Assembly (NCBI GenBank): GCA_964487045.1
Contig: CAZAOT010000001.1
Location: 4,875-68,874, forward strand
Source of the DNA: an uncultured Candidatus Saccharibacteria bacterium
Lineage (GTDB): Bacteria; Patescibacteriota; UBA1384; DTJR01
Direction of reading: 5' to 3'
Length of the DNA stretch: 64,000 nucleotides
The translations under genes were made by a program, and so were the position numbers. How positions within the stretch are numbered: position 1 is the first letter of the stretch; every line of letters begins with the position of its first letter. The notes beneath the pieces were generated by a model. It saw only the letters and a list, made by a program, of their open reading frames with translations. It was not told where the DNA came from and did no database searches. Shown here piece after piece: positions 2,819-44,603 of this stretch.

Positions 2819-4666
2819 TCAAGAATTAATTTGCTTTTTAAGACTTAGAAAAACACTTTCCGGAATTTTTTCTTCCAGGGTGCTAACATCGCCAAGATCC
2901 TTGTTTTCTAAAGCGGCTTTAAGTAGTCGCCGCATAATTTTTCCGGACCTGGTTTTGGGTAAGCTATCGATAAATATAATATTTGATACGGCGGCAAACT
3001 TACCAATCGAATTGACGATTAGCTGCTTGATCTCGGACTCAATATCAGCCTCTCTCGCATTTTTTAACTTAACAGCGAAGACAATTATCTGCTCTCCCTT
3101 GATGCTATCTTCAAAACCGATCGCGGCTGATTCGGCGATGAGTGGGTGCAGGTTAATAACGCTTTCTATCTCGGGTGAGCTAAAGCGGTGACCGGCAACT
3201 TTAATAACATCATCGAAACGGCCAAGGATATAAATATCGCCGTCTTTGTCTCTGGTCGCAAAATCTCCTGTTAAATAGCAGCCTTTGAACTTGCTAAGGT
3301 ATGAGTTGATGAATCTTTTTTGGTCTTTATAGATTCCAGTGGTCATTCCAGGCCAAGGCTGGTCAATCACTAGATATCCTTTTTGGCCAGTTGATGCTTG
3401 TCGACCACTTTCGTGAAGTACCTTAACCGACAAGCCTTGAAGAGGCTTGGTAGCCGATCCAGGTTTTTGCTTCTTAGGGCCATCTTTGCGGGGCGAGATA
3501 ATCACTCCACCGGTTTCGGTTTGCCACCAAGTATCAGCAATAGGGCATCTCCCCTGGCCGATCACATCGTGAAACCATTGCCAGGCTGATTTGTTGATAG
3601 GCTCACCGACAGAGCCGAGTTGTCTAAGGCTGGGTAAGTTGATCTTGGTCTTGTCTTCCTCGGCGAATTTCTTGAGCATCCGAATGGCGGTTGGCGAGGT
3701 ATAGAAAATGTCTATTTTATGTTTCTTGATTAGGCGGTACCAGATTTGTCTGTCTGGATAGTCAAGCGTACCTTCTTGCAGAAAAATCGTTAATCCATGC
3801 ATCAGTGGTGCGTAAGTAACATAAGAGTGTCCAGTTATCCAGCCGATATCTGCTGAGCACCAATAAACTGATTTTTGGTTGAAGTCGAAAATTTGCTCAA
3901 AGATCGAATAATTATGTACCAAATATCCGCCTACACGATGGACAATCCCTTTTGGCTTGCCAGTGGAGCCGGAGGTATAGAGAATGAAGATTGGATCGTT
4001 TGAGTCCATTTGCTCAGGTTCTACGTTTTCTTGCCCGATTGATTTTGACAAATTCTTAAAGCCGATACTTCTGCCTTTTGTGGTGAATTTTTCTCGATCA
4101 AAAATCAGTACTTTTTTGACACATTTAACTCCCCTCACAGCCTGATCTACATTTTCCTTAAGGCTGATTTTTTTGCCCCGTCTGTAAGAGATATCACAAG
4201 AGATCACTAACTTGCATGATGTCTCTTCGATCCGCTCACGAAGTGCCTTGGGGCTAAAACCCGAGAAAACAACATTGTGGACGGCGCCAAGTCTTGTGCA
4301 GGCAAGCATTGCAATTATTGCCTGAGGGATCATCGGCATATAAATAGTGATGATGTCACCCTTCTTTGCCCCAAGGCGTTTAAGACAAGCGGCCCAAAGA
4401 TTTACCTCTCTAAGTAAGTCATTGTAGCTAAGCTTAAGCATTTCGCCCGTCTCTGATTCCCAGATAATGGCTGTTTTTGTGCCATGGCCTTTGCTCACTT
4501 GCCAATCAATGCAAACACTCGAAGGATTAATTTTTCCTCCGATAAACCAATCAGTCTTGTTTCCTGATTGCCGGGCGACTTTAGTAAAATTTTGCGCCCA
4601 AGGAAGTTTTCGCCCCTCTTTATCCCAAAATATTTGGCTTTCCTTGCTTAGCTTGTTCATAGTCAT
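2819..4666 (-). CDS. acs: acetate--CoA ligase / AMP-forming acyl-CoA synthetase
   Basis: 615 aa. AMP-binding motif YTSGSTGKPKG, and a WWQTETGG motif typical of Acs. Transcribed divergently from the pse operon. Confidence 0.85.
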   Translation of the reverse strand: MTMNKLSKESQIFWDKEGRKLPWAQNFTKVARQSGNKTDWFIGGKINPSSVCIDWQVSKGHGTKTAIIWESETGEMLKLSYNDLLREVNLWAACLKRLGAKKGDIITIYMPMIPQAIIAMLACTRLGAVHNVVFSGFSPKALRERIEETSCKLVISCDISYRRGKKISLKENVDQAVRGVKCVKKVLIFDREKFTTKGRSIGFKNLSKSIGQENVEPEQMDSNDPIFILYTSGSTGKPKGIVHRVGGYLVHNYSIFEQIFDFNQKSVYWCSADIGWITGHSYVTYAPLMHGLTIFLQEGTLDYPDRQIWYRLIKKHKIDIFYTSPTAIRMLKKFAEEDKTKINLPSLRQLGSVGEPINKSAWQWFHDVIGQGRCPIADTWWQTETGGVIISPRKDGPKKQKPGSATKPLQGLSVKVLHESGRQASTGQKGYLVIDQPWPGMTTGIYKDQKRFINSYLSKFKGCYLTGDFATRDKDGDIYILGRFDDVIKVAGHRFSSPEIESVINLHPLIAESAAIGFEDSIKGEQIIVFAVKLKNAREADIESEIKQLIVNSIGKFAAVSNIIFIDSLPKTRSGKIMRRLLKAALENKDLGDVSTLEEKIPESVFLSLKKQINS

Positions 4667-32301: not shown

Positions 32302-33474
32302 TTATCTGTTAGATAGGTCACCAATAATTTTTTTGTATGTAGCGACGCTCTTTCTTGGTTTGCGGTCAATTGTATGCAGACCAAACATCATCGAGTAACC
32401 ACTGGCCCACTCAAAGTTATCAAGAAGCGACCAATAGAAATAGCCACGAAGATCATATCCGTCCTTTATCGACTCGCCAAGCTCCTGAAAAACGTTCTCT
32501 AGATAAGCTTGGCGCTTATCGTCATCGATCGTGTCATCGCAAGGAATGCCGTTTTCAGTAATATAAATTGGTTTATTATATTTGCTTGCCTCCTTGATAA
32601 CTTCACAAATTCCAGACGGCTTTTGGATCCAGTGATATTTTTCTTTTTCGGTAATTCGATCGCGGATGAATTTTGGGCTAAAACAGACGAAATGACTCAA
32701 ATAATGATTGATACCTACAAAATCAAAATGTCCCTTTATCTTGTTTAAGAAAAATTCGTTAACTAACCATTTGGCAAGACCAGTTAGTAGTCTATCTTGC
32801 CAAACGGGACGAGAAGGGAAAAATGCGCTCATATTATAAGCAATTCCAATTTGAATATCCTTACTTTCTTTTTTCATTGCTAAATAGGACTGCTTTTGGG
32901 CTGAAATAAGATTAAAAAAAGTTCTGACGCCGTCTAGGTATGCGCCTCGTCTTCCAGGATACCAGTTCCCAGCGATGAATCCGGTCATTACATAGACATT
33001 TGGTTCGTTTAGGACAGACCATAGCTTCACTTCATTGCCGAACTCCTTCGCCATCCTAGAGGCAAACCTAGCAAAATACCAAGGGGCTTTGCGATTGGTC
33101 AGGCCTCCCTTGTCATCTAGCCAGACGGGTAGGGTGAAGTGAAACAGCGTCACCATAGGCTCAATTTTGTTTCTATTGAGCTCGGCAATTATTTCCCGGT
33201 AATGTTCAACAGCCTCTTGATTGAATTTTCCTTCTTCGGGCTCGATTCGTGACCATTCTATCGAAAAACGATAAGCATTTTGAGAAGAATCCTTCAGAAG
33301 TTTAATATCATCACGCCATTTATTGTAACTATCCGCCGCTATTTCAGCAGTATCATGATTATGAATCTTTCCGGGAAGTTTCTCCCACTCAGACCAGTCA
33401 TTGTGCTGGTGCCCTTCGATTTGGTGAGCGCTTGTGGCTGAGCCGAATAAAAATCCTTTTGGAAATTTTATCAT
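32302..33474 (-). CDS. glycoside hydrolase family 1 beta-glucosidase
   Basis: 390 aa with NEPN (acid/base Glu) and ITENG (nucleophile Glu) motifs. Confidence 0.9.
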   Translation of the reverse strand: MIKFPKGFLFGSATSAHQIEGHQHNDWSEWEKLPGKIHNHDTAEIAADSYNKWRDDIKLLKDSSQNAYRFSIEWSRIEPEEGKFNQEAVEHYREIIAELNRNKIEPMVTLFHFTLPVWLDDKGGLTNRKAPWYFARFASRMAKEFGNEVKLWSVLNEPNVYVMTGFIAGNWYPGRRGAYLDGVRTFFNLISAQKQSYLAMKKESKDIQIGIAYNMSAFFPSRPVWQDRLLTGLAKWLVNEFFLNKIKGHFDFVGINHYLSHFVCFSPKFIRDRITEKEKYHWIQKPSGICEVIKEASKYNKPIYITENGIPCDDTIDDDKRQAYLENVFQELGESIKDGYDLRGYFYWSLLDNFEWASGYSMMFGLHTIDRKPRKSVATYKKIIGDLSNR

Positions 33475-33893
33475 CTGACTTTTTTTGAATATTTAGTAAT
33501 CAGATCTTTTACTCCAGCGATGACCGCGTCGCGTACTTCAGGATCACTTTGCGCCACCCAAATTGCCAGGTTGTAGAGCTTAGCCGGCTGAATTGTCATC
33601 CATCTTTTATTTAAGAACAAAAAGATAAGCAATGTTGTGACGGCAATGCGCTTGTTGCCATTTTGAAAGGGATGGTTTTTGATGAGTAGATAAAATAATA
33701 CCGCCGCCTTTTCTTCGAATTCAGGATAGAGATCCTTGCGATTATAGGTCTGAAAGGGTACAGCAAGACAGCTTTCCAGCACTTTTGGAAATCTTGTCTC
33801 AAACGCAGGGATTGGTTCATCCCAAGCCATAGTAGCGATGGCGAGCTGGTGAGCAATATCTTTGATGTGATCAACTCCAATACGCTTGATCAT
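33471..33893 (-). CDS. doc: Doc (death-on-curing) Fic-family toxin
   Basis: 140 aa with Fic/Doc motif HPFQNGNKR. ATGA overlap with the upstream HTH gene. Confidence 0.88.
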   Translation of the reverse strand: MIKRIGVDHIKDIAHQLAIATMAWDEPIPAFETRFPKVLESCLAVPFQTYNRKDLYPEFEEKAAVLFYLLIKNHPFQNGNKRIAVTTLLIFLFLNKRWMTIQPAKLYNLAIWVAQSDPEVRDAVIAGVKDLITKYSKKVR

Positions 33894-34147
33894 TCTGCTC
33901 CCAAGTCCTTAATGACCGACCCATAATCTCGAAGTGTTTTCTCTACACCCTTAGTAATCAGAGACTTATCGTTGCCAGAAATTTCCCCCGTAATTTTATT
34001 GAGCTCTCCGATTGGTATCAGGTAATTTTTACCAAAACGCTCAGACTTAATAAGCCCAGCCTTTACTCTTCTAAAGATCTGAGATCTGCTCATACCGATT
34101 GCAAGTGCGAAATCGGGGATAGTGATAAATTCCTTTTCATGTTGCAT
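33890..34147 (-). CDS. helix-turn-helix antitoxin partner of Doc
   Basis: 85 aa. N-terminal excisionase/MerR-like HTH (FITIPDFALAIGMSRSQIFRRVKAGLI). Translationally coupled to doc. Confidence 0.75.
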   Translation of the reverse strand: MQHEKEFITIPDFALAIGMSRSQIFRRVKAGLIKSERFGKNYLIPIGELNKITGEISGNDKSLITKGVEKTLRDYGSVIKDLGAE

Positions 34148-34221: not shown

Positions 34222-34533
34222 CTTCGGGTGTCTAGCTATAAACTGGTTCGAAGATAGCTTAAACTCTTAACATAAGCTTACCATGAGTTGTCAATGGGGG
34301 TTAGGTAATATAAAAAGCCGGTTTGTTGCCGGTATTTCATTTTTGGCGGAGCGATTTTTGAGAGCTTTTGCGAGGTGGAATCGCAAAATTCCTAAGCAAA
34401 AATCTAATGTATGAGGGATTCGGTCAGCGGTCAAAATTTGCTATTTTTTCCTTATGGAGGGATCCTCGTAAGGCTGGGCAAAGCCCATCTTCCTTGCGCA
34501 CCCTCGTCGAGGGTTCGATCCTTTCCCTCGCAG

Positions 34534-34569: not shown

Positions 34570-34659
34570 TGGCGGAGAGGGAGGGATTCGAACCCTCGGG
34601 CCCCTTGCGAGACCAACACATTAGCAGTGTGTCCCATTCGACCACTCTGGCACCTCTCC
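34570..34659 (-). tRNA. tRNA-Ser (anticodon GCU)
   Basis: 90 nt. Acceptor GGAGAGG/CCTCTCC, anticodon arm ACACA-CTGCTAA-TGTGT, long variable arm, T arm GAGGG-TTCGAAT-CCCTC, encoded CCA. Confidence 0.92.
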
Positions 34660-36828: not shown

Positions 36829-37220
36829 ATATCGATTCTGCTATAATTAATCTGTACTAATTTTTCTGCAAAACATTTACTTCTGCGTGAAGTATCTCAA
36901 AAGAGGGGGCACCCCGATTAAATTTACATATTTAACGGGTCGAGGTGACGTACTTTTTTCGCCTAAAATCTGATAGGTAATCGTTCAGTCTCGCCTGGCA
37001 CCCTATTGCATAGCGCGATAGAACTATCACAAGTCTAACAACCTCTTTTTGCTCGCTTTGTTAAAGTCGAAATCATTTCTTTGGTTTTTACAAAGTAGAG
37101 CTAAGCGAAACCAGTCGCTATTATTAGTTTTTTGTTCGAAGGAGGGGAAAATTCGGCAATTGTTTTGTTAGTGATTTTTTTCATACTAATGAGTGGGCGG
37201 TAAGATTTTAAAAAATATTT

Positions 37221-37264
37221 AAACAAAAGAGGCGGGAGCGAAGGGGTTGCCCTTCGCTCCCGCC
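37221..37264 (-). terminator. intrinsic terminator of the GC-rich small-protein operon
   Basis: GGCGGGAGCGAAGGG pairs with CCCTTCGCTCCCGCC (37231-37264), followed on the minus strand by TCTTTTGTTT. Confidence 0.8.
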
Positions 37265-37270
37265 GGGATG

Positions 37271-37423
37271 CTACGCGCTTTTCGCGCGCTTGATGTGGTA
37301 GGCGAGTGAGATGATGGCGCACACCCCACAGAAGAATGGGATTGCGCGTATGTGCTCACCTCCATAGGCCTCAATAAGGCCGCCAGTGACCAGCGATAGA
37401 ATCGAATAGCCCAGAAGACTCAT
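37271..37423 (-). CDS. 50-aa two-TM peptide (gene D of GC-rich operon)
   Basis: MSLLGYSILSLVTGGLIEAYGGEHIRAIPFFCGVCAIISLAYHIKRAKSA. RBS TAGGAG overlaps the stop of gene C. Not in the ORF track because of its size. Confidence 0.55.
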   Translation of the reverse strand: MSLLGYSILSLVTGGLIEAYGGEHIRAIPFFCGVCAIISLAYHIKRAKSA

Positions 37424-37433
37424 CGTGATACTC

Positions 37434-37709
37434 CTATTCTAATCCCAGAGTTGCTCCGCCGGCAAAGCGGCGTTCTGTTTCAGCGAGGAGAGCCTTTCCC
37501 TCGATCGTCACCATGTTGTCCGACATGATTCCTTGCTTGTCTGGACAAATGATGAGTTCTGCTTCGCCTGTCAGTCTGACTTCAGCGGAACTCGTTTCCG
37601 CTATCTCGACAAAAAGAGGTGGCTCGTGTGAGCCAGACTTATTCTTCAGACAGACCCAGATACGCGAGCCGACAGGTTGGCGCCTGAGGTCGAAGAAGTT
37701 TAGCTTCAC
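37434..37709 (-). CDS. 91-aa soluble protein (gene C of GC-rich operon)
   Basis: GTG at 37709, preceded by GAGGAGG. GTGA start/stop overlap with gene B. VKLNFFDLRRQPVGSRIWVCLKNK... No family recognised. Confidence 0.6.
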   Translation of the reverse strand: MKLNFFDLRRQPVGSRIWVCLKNKSGSHEPPLFVEIAETSSAEVRLTGEAELIICPDKQGIMSDNMVTIEGKALLAETERRFAGGATLGLE

Positions 37710-37927
37710 GCTACCTCCTCGCTTGACGCTTCGGCTGTTTCTTCTCTTCTTCCTCTGAACGAAGAGATGATGGCAAGGCCGCCACAGAAGATGCAATTGC
37801 CGCTTGCGAGGAGAGTCACTGAGACTGGCACGTCCTGCTTGATGTAGAGAATACCGAGCAGGACAAGTCCCATGGCGATTAGTCCGAGACCGCTAAGGAT
37901 CAGGCTTATATCCGGTTTGTATTTCAT
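37706..37927 (-). CDS. 73-aa two-TM protein (gene B of GC-rich operon)
   Basis: MKYKPDISLILSGLGLIAMGLVLLGILYIK...NCIFCGGLAIISSF. RBS AAGGGAAAG. Starts 15 nt after the gene A stop. Confidence 0.65.
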   Translation of the reverse strand: MKYKPDISLILSGLGLIAMGLVLLGILYIKQDVPVSVTLLASGNCIFCGGLAIISSFRGRREETAEASSEEVA

Positions 37928-37942
37928 TGGTGCTTTCCCTTT

Positions 37943-38077
37943 CTAGCGCGTGAATGCGAACTGGGGAAGGTGCTGCCAGGCGAGAGCAATGGCAGCACAG
38001 AAGATGATCACTAGTCCTACCAAGGCGAGGTAGGCCGGCAGATTGTGCCTTTCTGATTCTAGGAATCTTAGTCGCAT
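37943..38077 (-). CDS. 44-aa single-TM peptide (gene A of GC-rich operon)
   Basis: MRLRFLESERHNLPAYLALVGLVIIFCAAIALAWQHLPQFAFTR. RBS AGGGAGAGGG lies 3 nt upstream of the ATG at 38077. Confidence 0.5.
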   Translation of the reverse strand: MRLRFLESERHNLPAYLALVGLVIIFCAAIALAWQHLPQFAFTR

Positions 38078-38244: not shown

Positions 38245-38321
38245 GCACCCGTAGCTCAGCTGGATAGAGCGTTGGCTTGCGGAGCCAAAGGTCGTAGGTT
38301 CGAATCCTATCGGGTGTACCA
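38245..38321 (+). tRNA. tRNA-Arg (anticodon GCG)
   Basis: 77 nt. Acceptor GCACCCG/CGGGTGT, D arm with A20, anticodon arm TTGGC-TTGCGGA-GCCAA, T arm GTAGG-TTCGAAT-CCTAT, encoded CCA. Its last 6 nt are also the first 6 nt of IR-A. Confidence 0.9.
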
Positions 38322-39776
38322 GTACGGAAATGTCAAATTTTGGGAGTTTGCGCCGCCTGCGGCGGCGACTAAATTGTAGGGAATTTTTGCTTCAAAATGC
38401 CACTTTCGATTCTGTAAGAAATGGTTCGAGCCGATATTTTTGAGAAATGTTAGAATTTCCGAATAATCTTCGGAATTTTTTAGTTTATCTGCTTTGGCAA
38501 GCGATAAAATGAACTCTTTGGCCGGTTCGAGCCAAGACAATCCTTTTTGTTCAAAATCTGTAATTTTTTCGTTAATCTCCAGCTTTTCGCTAAGTAGCTT
38601 TTGTTTTCGCAAAGTATATTCTTCGGTTGTAATGACTTCGCTCAGATATACATCGAGTAATTTTTCAAGCTGTTTCGTAATTTCTTCGAGCTTTACTTTG
38701 AGATTTTGAACAGAAGTTTTAGCCAACGTTCTTGCTTGAGTTTCTTGTTTCTCTAATTCAAACAAAACTTTTTTGGTATCTTGGCTCGACAAAGAAACTT
38801 TTTGTAAATACCCATTTATTTGCTCAACGAGTTTTTCTTCTCGCAGATAATGCTTTTCTTGGCAACCACTTTTCTTTTTTGTGCATCGGTAATAGTTGTG
38901 GCCTTTTTGTATTTCGGCAGTAATCGCACAGCCGCAACTTTTACATTTCATAAGCCCAAGAAAAGCAAAATGATGTTTTTCCTTTTTGCGAGGCTTGCCA
39001 CGATCTTTCAATACTTCTTGGCATTTATCAAAAAGTTTCTTTGGGATTATCGGTTTGTGTTTTCCTTCGTATATTTCGCCGTTATATTTCATTAGCCCAA
39101 TGTAGAAAATATTTTGTAGAATTGAATTGATATTGCTGATAGAAATCCTCTTGTTGAGATTCCCGAATAACATGTCATCTTCCGCCCAATTTGCGAGAGA
39201 ATTAAAGGTATATTTGCCGGTTGAATAGAGCTCAAAAAGCTTTCTGACTTTTCTAACCTTTATTTCGTCGACATCAATATTTCTTGTTCTCGGATTATTT
39301 ATATAGCCAACCGGCGCCCAGCCGGGCCAAACTCCATTTCGTATTTTTTGCCTTAACCCTCGTTTTACATTCTCTCGCAAATTGTCTACAAAATATTTTG
39401 ATTGACCAAAAGCAATGTTCAACATGAAAATCCCTTGAGGTGTTGGTTCAAACCAGAACGAAGGAAAACACAAGGATTTGATTTTCTGCCGGTCTATCAT
39501 GTGGATTATCTTTCCACCGTCTACACTATTTCTTGCTAACCTGTCAGGGTGCCAACTCAAAATCCCTTCCGCCTTTCCTTTTTCGATCAATTCTAACATT
39601 TCAGCGAACTTCGTTCGACCAGGTTCTTTGGCAGTTTTGGCTTCGCACAGCGAAGCGACAATTTCAAGTTTTTCTTTGGCGGCAAATTCCCGAAGCTCAA
39701 CTAGTTGAGCTTCAATCGAAAGAACTTGTCTGTCATCATCTTCAGTACTTTTGCGAGCGTAAATTATGTAGCGCAT
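38307..39776 (-). CDS. large serine recombinase (integrase)
   Basis: 489 aa from the ATG at 39776 (RBS AAAGGAGG).
- MRYIIYARKSTEDDDRQVLSIEAQ resolvase catalytic domain (Ser10).
- Recombinase domain, zinc ribbon CKSCGC...YYRC...C, and a coiled-coil.
- AT-rich.
- The last roughly 36 codons lie in IR-A, and the stop lies inside the tRNA. Confidence 0.9.
   Translation of the reverse strand: MRYIIYARKSTEDDDRQVLSIEAQLVELREFAAKEKLEIVASLCEAKTAKEPGRTKFAEMLELIEKGKAEGILSWHPDRLARNSVDGGKIIHMIDRQKIKSLCFPSFWFEPTPQGIFMLNIAFGQSKYFVDNLRENVKRGLRQKIRNGVWPGWAPVGYINNPRTRNIDVDEIKVRKVRKLFELYSTGKYTFNSLANWAEDDMLFGNLNKRISISNINSILQNIFYIGLMKYNGEIYEGKHKPIIPKKLFDKCQEVLKDRGKPRKKEKHHFAFLGLMKCKSCGCAITAEIQKGHNYYRCTKKKSGCQEKHYLREEKLVEQINGYLQKVSLSSQDTKKVLFELEKQETQARTLAKTSVQNLKVKLEEITKQLEKLLDVYLSEVITTEEYTLRKQKLLSEKLEINEKITDFEQKGLSWLEPAKEFILSLAKADKLKNSEDYSEILTFLKNIGSNHFLQNRKWHFEAKIPYNLVAAAGGANSQNLTFPYWYTR
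38316..38415 (+). repeat. IR-A, left copy (100 bp)
   Basis: Manual base-by-base comparison with the reverse complement of 39817-39916 gives 98/100 identical (mismatches at 38398 and 38407). Contains the palindrome CGCCGCCTGCGGCGGCG. Confidence 0.9.
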
Positions 39777-39816
39777 TTTCCTCCTTTTAATTTCATAAAA
39801 ATTTTCTTTTACAATC

Positions 39817-39916
39817 ACAGAATCAAAAGTGGCAATTTGAAGCAAAAATTCCCTACAATTTAGTCGCCGCCGCAGGCGGCGCAAACTCCCAAAATTTGAC
39901 ATTTCCGTACTGGTAC
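39817..39916 (-). repeat. IR-A, right copy (100 bp, inverted)
   Basis: Reverse complement of 38316-38415 with 2 mismatches. Lies upstream of the recombinase start. Its outer 7 nt (CTGGTAC) are shared with IR-B. Confidence 0.9.
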
Positions 39917-40004
39917 TCTATCCTGAAAATTGTTCGAACGTATTTTGGCCGCGAAGCGGCCGAGAAAACACCCCCGAAAATTCCCGACTGAAATTCTGAA
40001 CTTT
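39910..40004 (+). repeat. IR-B, left copy (95 bp)
   Basis: Manual comparison with the reverse complement of 40970-41064 gives 95/95 identical. Contains the hairpin GGCCGCGAAGCGGCC. Confidence 0.92.
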
Positions 40005-40133
40005 CAAAACTGCCAAAGAATCTGTTTCAAAAATATCGGCTCGAATCCATTAGTTTGTAAAAGAAAATTTTTATTAATTCAATCAGCACTGATTGATTTT
40101 TTATTCTTCTTGGTATATGCTTTTATTCAACAA

Positions 40134-40175
40134 TCGAAAGCAGAAATATTGAGTTTCTCAATTTCCTGCTTTCGA
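40134..40175 (+). promoter_or_regulatory. long imperfect hairpin upstream of the cargo gene
   Basis: TCGAAAGCAGAAATATTGAG, loop TTT, then CTCAATTTCCTGCTTTCGA: a roughly 19-bp stem with small bulges. An alternative CCTGCTT/AAGCAGG stem lies at 40165-40181. Sits about 37 nt before the cargo RBS. Confidence 0.4.
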
Positions 40176-40225
40176 AGCAGGAAAATCTCTGTACAGGCCA
40201 CAAGGCCGTGCAAGGAGTGAGAACA

Positions 40226-40846
40226 TTGTCTAAGGTCAACAGTATCCAGCTCACGTGTCTCAAGCCGAATGACTGTTCCACCCGACTTGCTCTTCCCGAA
40301 GTCACCTACGACTTTCGGGTGTGGGCTATCATCAACGACCTTGAGAAGGCCGTTGAGAAGGCGGGCGGTGCAACGCTCGCAGTCTTCGCGGGTGTTCCGT
40401 GGGAGTACGGGAGCCGCTCGGTCAACTTTCTCAACTATGTGGCCGAGATGGTGGTGAGAACAAACCGCGGCAAAGGGGAATTCATCGGAAGAAGCTATCT
40501 TGCGAGTGGCGGGATGTCACGGCTCGCAAGCTTGATGAAGGACGTTCGGCCAGACGGACAGATCAGAGCTGTGGTCGACCAAATCACGCGAACAATCTGG
40601 TCCGACCAGCCGATCCCGCGCGGTTTGCCCGACAATCTCTGGTACGAGCAGACGGACTACGAGTCGTTCTGCATCAAGTCGGGCAAAGGTGACATCATCA
40701 GGTGGGTTCCCGAGAATCAAGTTCAGGAGGAGCGGACGATGGGATTTCTCCGCTTGGAGTTTGAGGAGCCCTCTGTCAAGCACTTCTGTCAGCTAATTCA
40801 ACAGCTACATCGCTTTCCGGGTGTGGCCGAGTTCGCCAACGGCTAG
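40226..40846 (+). CDS. orphan GC-rich cargo protein of the recombinase element
   Basis: About 206 aa from the TTG at 40226 (AAGGAG 8 nt upstream); GTG at 40208 or 40217 are alternative starts. G/C-ending codon bias. No family recognised. Followed by a terminator. Confidence 0.65.
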   Translation: MSKVNSIQLTCLKPNDCSTRLALPEVTYDFRVWAIINDLEKAVEKAGGATLAVFAGVPWEYGSRSVNFLNYVAEMVVRTNRGKGEFIGRSYLASGGMSRLASLMKDVRPDGQIRAVVDQITRTIWSDQPIPRGLPDNLWYEQTDYESFCIKSGKGDIIRWVPENQVQEERTMGFLRLEFEEPSVKHFCQLIQQLHRFPGVAEFANG

Positions 40847-40869
40847 CTGTAGACCGGAGTACAAGCAAC

Positions 40870-40898
40870 AGGCAGACCAGCAGTGGCCTGCCTTTTTT
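40870..40898 (+). terminator. intrinsic terminator after cargo gene
   Basis: AGGCAGACC pairs with GGCCTGCCT (one mismatch), followed by TTTTTCTT. Confidence 0.6.
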
Positions 40899-40969
40899 CT
40901 TGCCGCCAAAGGAGAAATCTGCTAAGATTTCTCTAGTGAGCGAAGCTCACTAAAAAACTTGAAATTGTC

Positions 40970-41064
40970 AAAGTTCAGAATTTCAGTCGGGAATTTTCGG
41001 GGGTGTTTTCTCGGCCGCTTCGCGGCCAAAATACGTTCGAACAATTTTCAGGATAGAGTACCAG
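40970..41064 (-). repeat. IR-B, right copy (95 bp, inverted)
   Basis: Perfect reverse complement of 39910-40004. Ends with GTACCAG at 41058-41064. Confidence 0.92.
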
Positions 41065-41186
41065 AATAAAATTTGCCCCTCGCGGGCTAATTTTATTATT
41101 TGGGAACCATAGGATTCGAAGGCCGCAGCGAGCGTAGGCGAGCGAGGCGGGGTCGATGAATTTGCCAGCAGGCAAATATCAGTGAC

Positions 41187-41208
41187 CGAATCCTATCGGG
41201 TGTACCAG
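41187..41208 (+). repeat. direct repeat of tRNA-Arg 3' end (att-type site)
   Basis: 22/22 identical to 38301-38322. Followed by hairpin ATATGAC...GTCATAT plus T8 (41210-41248). Confidence 0.85.
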
Positions 41209-41288
41209 AATATGACCCCGCACAAGTGGAGTCATATTTTTTTTATTGATGTTGTTTGATGAGCGGGGTAAAATTAAATAAATAATTA

Positions 41289-41828
41289 ATGGCAAATTAT
41301 ATGAACGAAGATACAAAGCATAAGTTTCTGTTAGCAATTTTGATTATATTGATCATAGTGCTCCTAGGCTTGGTTGGGCTTATCTATAGACAGATTAAGT
41401 CTGCTAGAGACGTGGCAGCTCGAGAGGATGGCTTGGTGTCAAGCTCAGCTACAATCGCTCCTACGGACAATATCAGTGTATCCTACGACTTGGGGTCACC
41501 AAGCAGCGCAAATACGGAGATACTTGATGGCGTTAAGGACGTCGCAAATAGGTTTATGCAAGCCAAAGAAAATCGATCTCTAGAAGAAGCCAAGCCTTAT
41601 ATGACTGAAGATCTATTTAAGTCGACAGCTCAGGAAGAATTCGCTGGAACGTCTAGTCCGTCAATGGATCGATTTGAGGTTAAAAGTGCCCAAGCGGTTA
41701 AGACTCCAAATACTTATGAAGTTGATGTGGTTAGCTACTGGAAATTAAACGGCGAAGATGCCGAAACGGTTAATTATAGTTTGATAGTTATAAAACAAGA
41801 CGAAAATTATCTGGTTAGTAAATTCTAG
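41289..41828 (+). CDS. hypothetical membrane-anchored protein
   Basis: 179 aa with an N-terminal TM helix (FLLAILIILIIVLLGLVGLIY). AT-rich. Confidence 0.65.
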   Translation: MANYMNEDTKHKFLLAILIILIIVLLGLVGLIYRQIKSARDVAAREDGLVSSSATIAPTDNISVSYDLGSPSSANTEILDGVKDVANRFMQAKENRSLEEAKPYMTEDLFKSTAQEEFAGTSSPSMDRFEVKSAQAVKTPNTYEVDVVSYWKLNGEDAETVNYSLIVIKQDENYLVSKF

Positions 41829-42293: not shown

Positions 42294-42437
42294 ATTATCA
42301 CCCACCTTTCTTACTAAATTGTAGCAAAAATTCTGATAAGTAAATACCTTTTAAAATTTTGATTATTATGCTTGCTTTAGCGTGGTTTATCTGGTAAAAA
42401 ATGCATATCACGACCATGTTCGAAGGATGGTGAGCAG

Positions 42438-42635
42438 ATGGCCAGGCATATGAGTTGGCGTAAAGGTGGTCGGGCGAGACCCAAGAGGTGTCACCGAGAG
42501 CAACCGGGTCACCCCGATCCGCAAGGTGCCCAGTGGCGTCACGAACGGTACATCGAGCAGATGCGCGCAAGCCTGAAGCCGGGACAGCTTGAGGCCCTTC
42601 AGGCGCTCAGCCACGGTTACCACAGGTACCGATGA
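42438..42635 (+). CDS. possible 65-aa highly basic protein of GC-rich island 5 (could instead be non-coding)
   Basis: ATG preceded by AAGGATGGTGA. Followed by hairpin AGAGTCTC/GAGACTCT (42656-42692) plus a T-rich run. The composition-biased sequence makes coding status uncertain. Confidence 0.35.
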   Translation: MARHMSWRKGGRARPKRCHREQPGHPDPQGAQWRHERYIEQMRASLKPGQLEALQALSHGYHRYR

Positions 42636-42717
42636 ACCACGAGCGCAGTCGTATCCAGAGTCTCAAGCTGGTCTTGTACCGGCGCGAGACTCTTCTTCTT
42701 TAATGATTGATTTTCCG

Positions 42718-43496: not shown

Positions 43497-43586
<90 letters not shown>

Positions 43587-43706: not shown

Positions 43707-43750
43707 GACGTGACGAGAATTCGCGTTCATTACAGAGGAGAGAGTGCCAT

Positions 43751-44179
43751 ATGTGTAAGAAACTGATATTTGCTAGTACGCTGGCACCGAAACTCTACTG
43801 CTTGTGCACACCGAGTGAGGAGTTGCTGGAGGTCTTGCTTGAGCGTGCCAAGGACGATGAGTGTCGCGCCGAGCCACTTATGGTGGCCGAACAGGAGATC
43901 GAGTTCGGGCCAGCCAACTATCTTTATGACGAGGCCCGCATGCGCGTCTGTGAGGCTAGTGCAGGCATGGCTACGGTCATGATCCAGGTCGGTAGTCATG
44001 CTGATGGAATTCGATCAGTGCTTGTGCCTGTTGGCGAGAAGGAGGGTGATGACGAAGCCCTGCCTGAAGGGGCTTTGATGCCAGGTATCGGTTGCCCGAT
44101 GGAATGTCTGCTGGGCCTGGGGCTGTTTTGTCTCGTGATCAAAGGCGGCATTTGCGCCGTCCATTATCTGCTCGGCTAA
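43751..44179 (+). CDS. orphan Cys-rich protein with C-terminal TM helix (GC-rich island 6)
   Basis: 142 aa. RBS GAGGAGAGAG. C-terminus GIGCPMECLLGLGLFCLVIKGGICAVHYLLG. Confidence 0.6.
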   Translation: MCKKLIFASTLAPKLYCLCTPSEELLEVLLERAKDDECRAEPLMVAEQEIEFGPANYLYDEARMRVCEASAGMATVMIQVGSHADGIRSVLVPVGEKEGDDEALPEGALMPGIGCPMECLLGLGLFCLVIKGGICAVHYLLG

Positions 44180-44200
44180 TGGCCGGGAGGGGAGTACAGC

Positions 44201-44512
44201 ATGTCTTTGTTTGGCAAAAAGGGAGAGCCGAAGCCGCCTAAGGTGAGGAAGGAGCGCAAGCCGCGCGCTCCGATCACCAAGGAGCGAGTCTTTGAAGGGT
44301 TGTTGGCTTTTGGCCGCAACCTGTTGCTGGTAGTGACCGTCGTAGGCATCTTGGCGCTCTCGGCGCTCGTCTACGTCCTGTTCCAGAAGATCGGCGGCGG
44401 CAGTAGCGACCCAGCAACGAAGAACCTGATTCTCGTCGCGACTGCGATGACGGCCGGAGGCGGCTTTTTCACGCTCTGGCTCGGCCGCACCTGGGGCATC
44501 ATCCCGTACTAG
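44201..44512 (+). CDS. orphan two-TM protein with Lys/Arg-rich N-terminus (GC-rich island 6)
   Basis: 103 aa. RBS GGGAGGGGAG lies 6 nt upstream of the ATG. Followed by a strong terminator. Confidence 0.65.
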   Translation: MSLFGKKGEPKPPKVRKERKPRAPITKERVFEGLLAFGRNLLLVVTVVGILALSALVYVLFQKIGGGSSDPATKNLILVATAMTAGGGFFTLWLGRTWGIIPY

Positions 44513-44535
44513 GGCTGATGCCTGCGAGCATCTTT

Positions 44536-44576
44536 GGCGGTTTGTCCGGTCACCCGGACAAACCGCCTTCTTTTTT
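44536..44576 (+). terminator. intrinsic terminator
   Basis: GGCGGTTTGTCCGG (44536-44549), loop TCAC, CCGGACAAACCGCC (44554-44567), then TTCTTTTTT. Confidence 0.85.
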
Positions 44577-44582
44577 AAAAAC

Positions 44583-44603
44583 AAAAAAATCGCCCTTTGG
44601 CGA
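44583..44603 (-). terminator. intrinsic terminator of the valS-TPR operon
   Basis: TCGCC (44590-44594) pairs with GGCGA (44599-44603), with a T7 run on the minus strand. Confidence 0.5.

Follow-up and report, generated by a model that had tools for sequence, protein, structure and literature searches.

A folded unit with tRNA-derived arms beyond a large-serine-recombinase element at a Saccharibacteria tRNA-Arg locus

The DNA analysed here (the window, 64,000 nucleotides from an uncultured Candidatus Saccharibacteria bacterium) contains a tRNA-Arg(GCG) gene followed by an integrated large-serine-recombinase (LSR) element and then by an interval, 41065–41244, with two hairpins and two partial copies of the tRNA 3′ end. 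Within this interval, 41101–41208 is a single 108-base folded unit. The original prediction, made on the window alone, took the inverted tRNA fragment and the 22-bp direct tRNA-end copy as separate relics of repeated recombination events; instead, both are ends of this one conserved unit. The unit recurs beside other tRNA genes, its structure is conserved, its arms come from the local tRNA and its direct copy has a sharp boundary at the T loop. It is present at some tRNAs and absent at their orthologues, and it is independent of the LSR element. The earlier observation is thus confirmed and its interpretation partly supported. The interval is a new variation on the known theme of tRNA-associated insertions; as a tentative explanation, a small non-autonomous element was inserted at the T loop of the tRNA and gave rise to the unit, and the LSR element integrated later at the CCA end.

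Features of the interval

The features of the locus are as follows.

38245–38321, + strand: tRNA-Arg(GCG), intact, CCA encoded (ARAGORN; Rfam tRNA, 69.8 bits)
38323–41057, no strand assigned: integrated LSR element of ~2.7 kb, directly after tRNA-Arg, ending with a core that extends to 41064
41058–41064, + strand: third core, at which the P arm of the LSR element joins the host flank (right junction)
41065–41097, + strand: hairpin 1, terminator-like; stems 41065–73/41089–97 and 41075–78/41084–87; free energy (dG) −12.8 kcal/mol, z −3.5
41101–41122, + strand: left arm of the unit, inverted fragment TGGGAACCATAGGATTCGAAGG, a degenerate inverted tRNA-Arg 3′ end down to the T loop
41109–41196, + strand: conserved core of the unit, a three-way junction
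41112–41117/41188–41193: P1, GGATTC/GAATCC (GGATTCG/CGAATCC in the alignment)
41122–41148: P2, a GC-rich hairpin
41151–41187: P3, a long hairpin with apical loop AGCA at 41167–41170
41187–41208, + strand: right arm of the unit, CGAATCCTATCGGGTGTACCAG, which repeats the tRNA-Arg 3′ end exactly and in direct orientation, starting at T-loop C56 and including CCA and the following G
41207–41240, + strand: hairpin 2, with T8 at 41237–41244; dG −15.9, z −6.7
41289–41828, + strand: downstream host gene, 179 aa, no Pfam match; synteny anchor for relatives

All four sequence features that had been noticed earlier are present and not random: hairpin 1, the inverted fragment with its exact 12-mer (about 3 nt to the left of where it had been placed), the exact 22-bp direct copy, and the second hairpin with its T8 (together 41207–41244). 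An independent Logan assembly (L001, SRR11845624) is identical to the window over 41040–41300, and the interval is therefore not an assembly artefact.

The source of the tRNA-end copies is the final 22 nt of tRNA-Arg including the following G (38301–38322). The 22-mer CGAATCCTATCGGGTGTACCAG occurs exactly twice in the window, there and in the right arm, with 0 occurrences expected. The left arm opens with TGG, the complement of CCA, and runs to ..ATAGGATTCGAA, a 12-mer (41109–41120) which is the exact reverse complement of tRNA positions 38299–38310 in the T loop and T stem. With up to one mismatch allowed, this 12-mer has 2 matches in the window, where 0.55 would be expected, and as many turn up in 7 of 100 shuffles; taken alone it is only modestly significant, and it is judged real because of its position and its conservation in a related species.

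Hairpin 1 has an AU-rich stem of 9 + 4 bp followed by TTATTATTT. Hairpin 2, which lies just upstream of the promoter region of the downstream gene, resembles Rho-independent terminators after tRNA genes in having a stem of 10 + 4 bp followed by T8, whereas hairpin 1 differs from these in its weak, interrupted U tract and in being the centre of a quasi-palindrome that includes the tRNA end. Hairpin 2 thus has the properties of an intrinsic terminator and hairpin 1 only part of them. A simple terminator scan flagged neither hairpin because both stems are bulged. The quasi-palindrome consists of the tRNA 3′ end, hairpin 1 and 41098–41122; it is centred near 41081 in the hairpin loop, with arms of ~45 nt.

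When 38323–41064 is removed in silico, hairpin 1 directly follows the tRNA and the direct repeat grows to 26 nt (CGAATCCTATCGGGTGTACCAGAATA), extending through AATA at 41209–41212. This 26-nt repeat bounds a unit of 144 bp (41065–41208) with ~118 bp between the repeats. Loss of the LSR element alone would be expected to leave the junction ...GTACCAGAATAAAATTT, and loss of both the 144-bp unit and the LSR element the junction ...GTACCAGAATATGACC.

Copies of the unit at other tRNA genes

The first homologue was found by a sensitive blastn search with 41098–41186, which matched a site beside tRNA-Ser(GCT) in contig L032, and further copies by motif searches and reading of flanks. Five copies of the core are available, four besides that of the window, on three contigs of related Patescibacteria, with ~70% identity over an 86-nt core.

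Window, after tRNA-Arg: 41109–41196, + strand
L025, orthologous tRNA-Arg locus: 114–199
L025, after tRNA-Ser(TGA): 1597–1680
L032, after tRNA-Ser(GCT): 2188–2277, − strand
L011, beside an apparent decayed tRNA-Ser: 3599–3682

The layout is constant. The tRNA with its CCA is followed by a locus-specific hairpin, then by TGG and an imperfect inverted tRNA end down to GGATTCGAA, then by the core, GTGAC and a direct copy of the end of the same tRNA, starting at T-loop CGAATCC. This start is found in the window tRNA-Arg copy, L032, the tRNA-Ser copy of L025 and a divergent unit at the window tRNA-Ser(GCT) (see below). The direct copy is 22 nt long in the window and 21 nt in L032, and is split into 10 + 8 nt at tRNA-Ser of L025. 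The inverted arm is built from local tRNA sequence in L025, L032 and L011, and local hairpins analogous to hairpin 1 occur at every other copy of the unit. A second hairpin with a T run lies downstream in three cases (window tRNA-Arg, L025 tRNA-Ser and the divergent window tRNA-Ser(GCT) unit). No recombinase was found near the three tRNA-Ser-type copies.

Searches with Rfam 15 (E ≤ 1) and ARAGORN over 41065–41250 revealed no known RNA or tRNA, and identity with a known RNA, tRNA or pseudo-tRNA was rejected. No account of the unit was found in Rfam or in the literature that was searched. In viral contigs the 14-mer GGATTCGAAGGCCG had chance matches only, with covariance-model scores of ≤21 bits; the matching contig that was read (L100) is of high G+C content and has no tRNA.

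Secondary structure and covariation

The segment 41098–41210 folds with a dG of −49.3 and a z of −5.8. RNAalifold predicts the three-way junction P1–P3 with compensatory changes in 15 of 28 pairs. In the pair count on the trimmed alignment, 14 of 27 predicted pairs are changed on both sides, 12 of these in P3, which has 15 pairs. Paired cells amount to 88.9% as observed versus 69.6% with shuffled columns, none of 500 shuffles reaching the observed value; when the partners are slid, 30–53% of cells are paired. In folds of the full unit, the 5′ UGG closes with the 3′ CCA in four of the five copies.

On the tRNA-sense strand, G-U pairs slightly outnumber A-C pairs (9 vs 5), a difference that is too weak to separate RNA from single-stranded DNA. 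A covariance model (R1) was built from all five copies, so that its own matches are not independent evidence; it scores the core of the window, which is one of its training sequences, at 87.8 bits. With filters off, R1 found no further copy in the window. The 64 kb hold one canonical copy and one divergent relative, and the 2.9-kb contig L025 holds two copies.

Presence, absence and turnover at related loci

Relatives of the locus were found as orthologues of the downstream gene 41289–41828. In L025, where this gene is 65% identical, the order is a P arm with GTACCAG, a strong hairpin with T7, an inverted stretch resembling the tRNA 3′ end (reverse complement CCTTCGAATCCTTCTGGGTGACCA), GC-rich hairpins, ..TATCGGGTGTACCA and the gene. 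In L031, a different species whose orthologue is 62% identical and whose synteny is confirmed on both sides, a small membrane-protein gene is followed by tRNA-Arg(GCG), one hairpin with T8 and the gene. This locus has neither a recombinase nor the extra 144 bp and represents an empty site. The 22-mer and hairpin 2 therefore lie where the tRNA end and the terminator stood ancestrally, and hairpin 2 is probably the ancestral tRNA-Arg terminator, because its position matches the single hairpin and T8 of L031. The earlier suggestion of two tRNA-end/terminator units stands to the extent that the 22-mer and hairpin 2 match the L031 tRNA end and single terminator; the two hairpins, however, have only GAATA at the 5′ edge in common and are not recognisable duplicates. 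In a search of metagenome contigs for empty sites with the 22-mer, only intact tRNA-Arg genes of unrelated bacteria matched.

Comparison of the tRNA-Arg locus across relatives, as had been suggested with the original prediction, revealed a rearranged locus: in L027, L028, L029, L030 and L032, tRNA-Arg is on the opposite strand, in tandem duplicates or accompanied by extra fragments. The locus is a rearrangement hotspot and hypervariable in relatives. Upstream of the gene orthologue in L028, L029 and L032, some loci have two tandem opposite-strand tRNA-Arg genes plus fragments of the 3′ end and anticodon arm, with GC-rich spacers. In L030 (950–1120), a 17-nt inverted repeat (CCCTGATAGCTGATCGA) lies on both sides of the tRNA, which is accompanied by an inverted 20-nt relic of the window-type tRNA-Arg end.

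Turnover is also seen at tRNA-Ser genes. After the window tRNA-Ser(GCT) (34570–34659), a divergent unit that R1 does not detect occupies 34409–34532 on the − strand; it consists of a hairpin, an inverted arm TGCGAGGGAAAGGATCGAACCCTC, ..GCTGAC with CGAATCCCTC, an insert of 61 nt that forms a hairpin, CTCCGCCA and a terminator. This unit and the L032 copy are orthologous, as both adjoin a glycosyl-hydrolase-1 gene, and the core has diverged past detection, so that the layout has lasted longer than the sequence of the core. The window tRNA-Ser(TGA) (43498–43586) has no unit, whereas its L025 counterpart has one, and another variant, TGGATTCGAC ... GAATCCCACCCTCTCCGTCA, follows tRNA-Ser(TGA) in L028.

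A further conserved insert opens with ATA(A)CATTAGNTTTTTG. It occurs in the window (34412–34350, − strand) and in L025 (1678–1720), at two different tRNA-Ser loci. There it folds into a hairpin whose loop is TTCCACC and interrupts the direct copy of the tRNA-Ser end, with the T stem on one side and the acceptor strand on the other; in L011 (~3785–3800) only the opening sequence was seen. Between the glycosyl-hydrolase gene and the tRNA-Ser(GCT) unit of the window lie a Fic/DOC-family gene and an 85-aa open reading frame (ORF) (33471–34147), which are not present at the orthologous L032 locus and may be an inserted toxin-antitoxin-like pair.

The adjacent LSR element

The components of the LSR element and its cores are as follows.

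39776 to 38307, − strand: LSR gene, 489 aa, with Pfam Resolvase, Recombinase and zinc-ribbon domains
38316–38322 (+), 39910–39916 (inverted), 41058–41064 (+) and 41202 (+): core GTACCAG, which is the final six bases of the tRNA plus G
38316–38415/39817–39916: inverted repeat IR-A, 100 nt, flanking the recombinase gene
39910–40004/40970–41064: inverted repeat IR-B, 95 nt, flanking the cargo segment
40208–40846: cargo ORF

The half-sites are ordered as tRNA|P′ (attL-like), inverted P|P′ (attP-like, with a symmetric GTAC-CA-GTAC) and P|flank (attR-like). The same two-module architecture is found at eight other loci (L002–L008 and L036), in which the target sites are the CCA ends of tRNA-Arg(TCG), tRNA-Leu(TAG) or tRNA-Ala(TGC). 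In these eight copies, nothing beyond the third core resembles the window, the DNA there being locus-specific; none of them matches 41065–41250. Because the other copies end at the core and share nothing with 41065–41250, the interval 41065–41208 is outside the LSR element, which ends at 41064. The original prediction had likewise placed the interval beyond the element, and no other copy of the element carries it. At L003, L004 and L036, out of six loci examined, the DNA beyond the third core opens with a hairpin, in two of them with a T run. Hairpin 1, which had looked like a native tRNA terminator, occupies the position that the tRNA's own terminator has at other copies of the element; because other copies adjoin comparable hairpins, it was plausibly the terminator following tRNA-Arg before the arrival of the LSR element. 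At the two loci where this is testable (L003 and L005), no tRNA-end relics lie beyond the element, and the idea that such relics are a general by-product of the element was rejected for this reason.

The LSR family is large: more than 7,800 database proteins match, the best 120 of which are 69–87% identical, and the few matches with a source name are all from Patescibacteria. No close relatives of the recombinase were found in viral contigs, and no account of the element was found in the literature that was searched. The motif TTCGR lies 15 nt from CCA in seven of seven target tRNAs and 20 nt from CCA in all eight P arms compared (window 41020–41064, L002, L003, L004, L006, L007, L025 and L036). 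In serine integrases, the motif of the zinc-ribbon domain is shifted 5 bp outward in attP relative to attB (PMC3783163). These spacings suggest that the LSR family recognises the universal T loop, which would therefore explain its broad range of tRNA targets. If this reading is true, the LSR would be a useful natural example for integrase targeting, with a simple attB/attP rule.

One module consists of the recombinase gene between inverted P′ arms of 100 nt, the other of the cargo gene between inverted P arms of 95 nt. They join at the internal, intact, inverted attP-like site, and their orientation is constant in every locus examined; excision via the outer sites would yield a circle carrying two inverted attP sites. 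The recombinase frame crosses the entire P′ arm and the crossover, with its stop codon (38307–38309) inside the tRNA gene; the C terminus of the recombinase would therefore change with the integration state. The arm-encoded C-terminal tail (..KIPYNL..LTFP.W..) is conserved in 26 aligned homologues. The cargo segment (40005–40074 and 40900–40969) contains 17–20-nt exact inverted copies of four pieces of the recombinase region (sources 38425–38443, 39620–39685 and 39795–39814), corresponding to codons 31–40, codons 46–52, the 3′ end and the 5′ untranslated region and arranged in circularly permuted order; the pieces from codons 46–52, the 3′ end and the 5′ untranslated region are kept at the same place in L002, L003 and L004. 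The cargo varies between element copies, including an HD domain, a metallophosphatase and several unknowns, and searches of the cargo genes for defence systems gave no PADLOC/NCBIfam match except for an HD/Cas3-like domain in L004. Patches of 53–60% G+C, against ~38–40% for the genome, occur at 37150–38050, 40150–40900, 42400–42700 and 43750–44600; among the sequences they cover are the element cargo ORF, which encodes 212 aa and matches no family, and genes for small membrane proteins that lie upstream of the tRNA.

Origin of the unit

In the explanation that is tentatively favoured, the insert would be a miniature integrative element or the remnant of a larger one, which would have entered tRNA-Arg at the T loop, just before C56. 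The insert would provide a replacement tRNA 3′ end and its own hairpin (hairpin 1), and the original 22–26-nt 3′ end with the native terminator (hairpin 2) would be displaced 144 bp downstream. After the tRNA had been restored in this way, the LSR element would have integrated at its CCA end and separated it from hairpin 1. Repeats that begin in the T loop and stop shortly after the end of the tRNA are the classic mark of tRNA-integrated elements, and older copies are pushed outward by later arrivals at tRNA genes (bioRxiv 10.1101/2020.12.28.424599). As with attL/attR pairs, the window has a direct tRNA-3′ repeat which starts in the T loop, and a relative has the empty site. An origin by insertion rather than as a gene, the choice of the downstream tRNA end as the original and the order of events are what these arrangements suggest.

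Several points weigh against an insertion. No cognate integrase lies between the repeats: the sole recombinase here belongs to an element whose junctions are at CCA (38322 and 41058–41064) and which excludes 41065–41208. Beside none of the copies was an integrase, transposase or reverse transcriptase found, and no target-site duplication is visible outside the TGG...CCA arms of any copy. The 64 kb contain a single canonical copy and so give no sign of multi-copy behaviour. Hairpin 1 and both arms are locus-specific, so that a mobile unit would have to carry another tRNA end for every target. The persistence of the layout at tRNA-Ser(GCT) despite the divergence of the core looks more like long-term selection on architecture than like a decaying scar. 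Similarly, the inverted arm is imperfect in every copy, with the TGG start and, at the inner end, the T-loop complement kept and the part between them changed in most copies, a pattern that reads as design rather than decay. Lastly, all five copies were used in building the model, which leaves no independent detection.

The main rival, serious though somewhat unlikely, is that the unit is a functional structured RNA or a cis-acting RNA element tied to the tRNA gene, for example a 3′-trailer-derived small RNA, that was never inserted and has co-evolved with the tRNA. The 5′ arm would be antisense to the tRNA 3′ end and the 3′ arm would mimic it, the two ends pairing to close the three-way junction. 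The strong covariation in P3 (12 of 15 pairs changed on both sides), the conserved apical CAGCAG/AGCA loop and the closing of UGG with CCA in the minimum-free-energy folds of four of the five copies are consistent with this idea, as are the survival of the architecture at the orthologous tRNA-Ser(GCT) locus while the core turned over, the exactness of the direct copies (22/22 and 21/21) next to fully diverged hairpins, and the slight excess of G-U over A-C pairs on the tRNA-sense strand. However, single-stranded-DNA hairpins explain the covariation equally well, the strand asymmetry being weak; there is no Rfam match at E ≤ 1 and no evident promoter, the unit beginning right after a terminator-like hairpin; and the unit is absent at orthologous tRNAs of close relatives.

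According to the original prediction, the site has repeatedly undergone integration, excision or inversion. That the adjacent LSR, acting at tRNA 3′ ends, left the fragments as scars of such events is now improbable. The recombinase family indeed targets the CCA ends of tRNAs (Arg, Leu and Ala), the intact internal inverted attP-like site could drive inversions, each arm of the unit is about the size of an attB half-site, its TGG...CCA bounds amount to inverted crossover cores, and both unit-bearing tRNA-Arg loci also carry an LSR element. Yet nothing ties the unit to the LSR. Serine recombinases exchange strands at a 2-bp overlap and make no 22-nt repeats; homologous units lie beside tRNA-Ser genes with no recombinase nearby; and L003 and L005 have the element without relics. 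The relics are unlikely to be usable attB half-sites, as they either lack the TTCGR motif or have it out of register: TTCGA is replaced by ACCGA in the direct copy, and the spacing from TTCGA to CCA in the inverted copy is 12 in the window and 14 in L025, versus 15. By reasoning, no modelled series of simple integrations and serine-recombinase inversions reproduces the observed order of half-sites. Conservation of the region next to tRNA-Arg in genomes lacking a recombinase element had been named as grounds for regarding it as ordinary native sequence; this is nearly what was found, the same kind of unit lying beside tRNA-Ser, though not tRNA-Arg, without a recombinase.

It is very improbable that the interval is ordinary native intergenic DNA in which the tRNA end was triplicated in direct-inverted-direct order when replication switched templates, once at the terminator quasi-palindrome and once at the palindromic T-loop TTCGAA. 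The inverted copy does mirror the tRNA end about the hairpin 1 loop (41/48 in the window, 42/46 in L025), and a palindrome is present at each junction, the hairpin loop at one and TTCGAA at the other. But the model predicts, by reasoning, two identical hairpins, whereas hairpins 1 and 2 match over 5 nt only, and it would need independent recurrence at Arg and Ser tRNAs. Nor can it account for the ~70-nt core common to different tRNA loci and genomes, which weighs strongly against it as a complete explanation.

Beyond the insertion proposed for this locus, it is possible, if doubtful, that the unit represents an undescribed class of tRNA-attached structured modules in candidate-phyla-radiation bacteria, being either a T-loop-targeting miniature element with a spare 3′ end or a tRNA-linked RNA with antisense and sense arms. 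It would stand beside an equally undescribed and very widespread LSR family that appears to read the T loop (TTCGR, with a 5-bp offset), to insert at the CCA of many tRNAs and to keep an internal inverted attP. tRNA genes are the main landing sites of mobile DNA, and partial-tRNA repeats are routinely taken as passive scars. Here the conserved folded core with its compensatory changes and the locally rebuilt arms point either to a minimal element of a new kind, living at the 3′ ends of tRNAs, or to a tRNA-linked RNA that is new in the small genomes of Patescibacteria; either reading, if true, would affect the annotation of tRNA loci in these genomes and the reading of integration histories.

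Comparison with known systems

Islands with P4-type tyrosine integrases leave partial-tRNA direct repeats. The unit is like the attL/attR partial-tRNA repeats and tandem accretion described for tycheposons (bioRxiv 10.1101/2020.12.28.424599) in its exact T-loop-to-CCA direct copy, the intact tRNA, the older 3′ end and terminator displaced downstream, and the position of the later element nearest the tRNA. It differs in having only ~118 bp between the repeats and no integrase of its own, and in its extra inverted tRNA-end copy and a structured core common to different tRNA loci.

Miniature inverted-repeat elements and structured repeats such as REPINs, Correia elements and RPEs are non-coding, ~100–150 bp long and stably folded, with terminal inverted repeats. 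The unit resembles these elements in size, terminal inverted repeats, compensatory hairpins and the lack of an encoded protein; its TGG..GGATTCG pairs with CGAATCC..CCA in four of five folds. Unlike theirs, its terminal repeats are copies of the local tRNA and vary by locus; it has no target-site duplication, its copy number is apparently very low, and it always lies directly after a tRNA gene and a hairpin.

CTX-type phages integrating at dif use a folded-hairpin attP with two inverted target-like sites ~90 nt apart. The likeness of the unit to this attP, which is an analogy only, lies in its inverted target copies, its spacer of 65–70 nt and an imperfect duplex, folded from one strand, that mimics the target. 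The unit differs in that it implicates no phage genome or Xer-type system and is intact beside its target rather than split across a prophage.

Compared with the att sites of large serine integrases, the unit itself is no such site: its tRNA-end copies are without the motif or have it out of register, and long direct repeats are not generated by serine integrases. The neighbouring LSR element, on the other hand, agrees with the A118/LI integrase model (PMC3783163) in its non-palindromic core flanked by symmetric GTAC and in the 5-bp offset of TTCGR, at 20 in attP versus 15 in attB.

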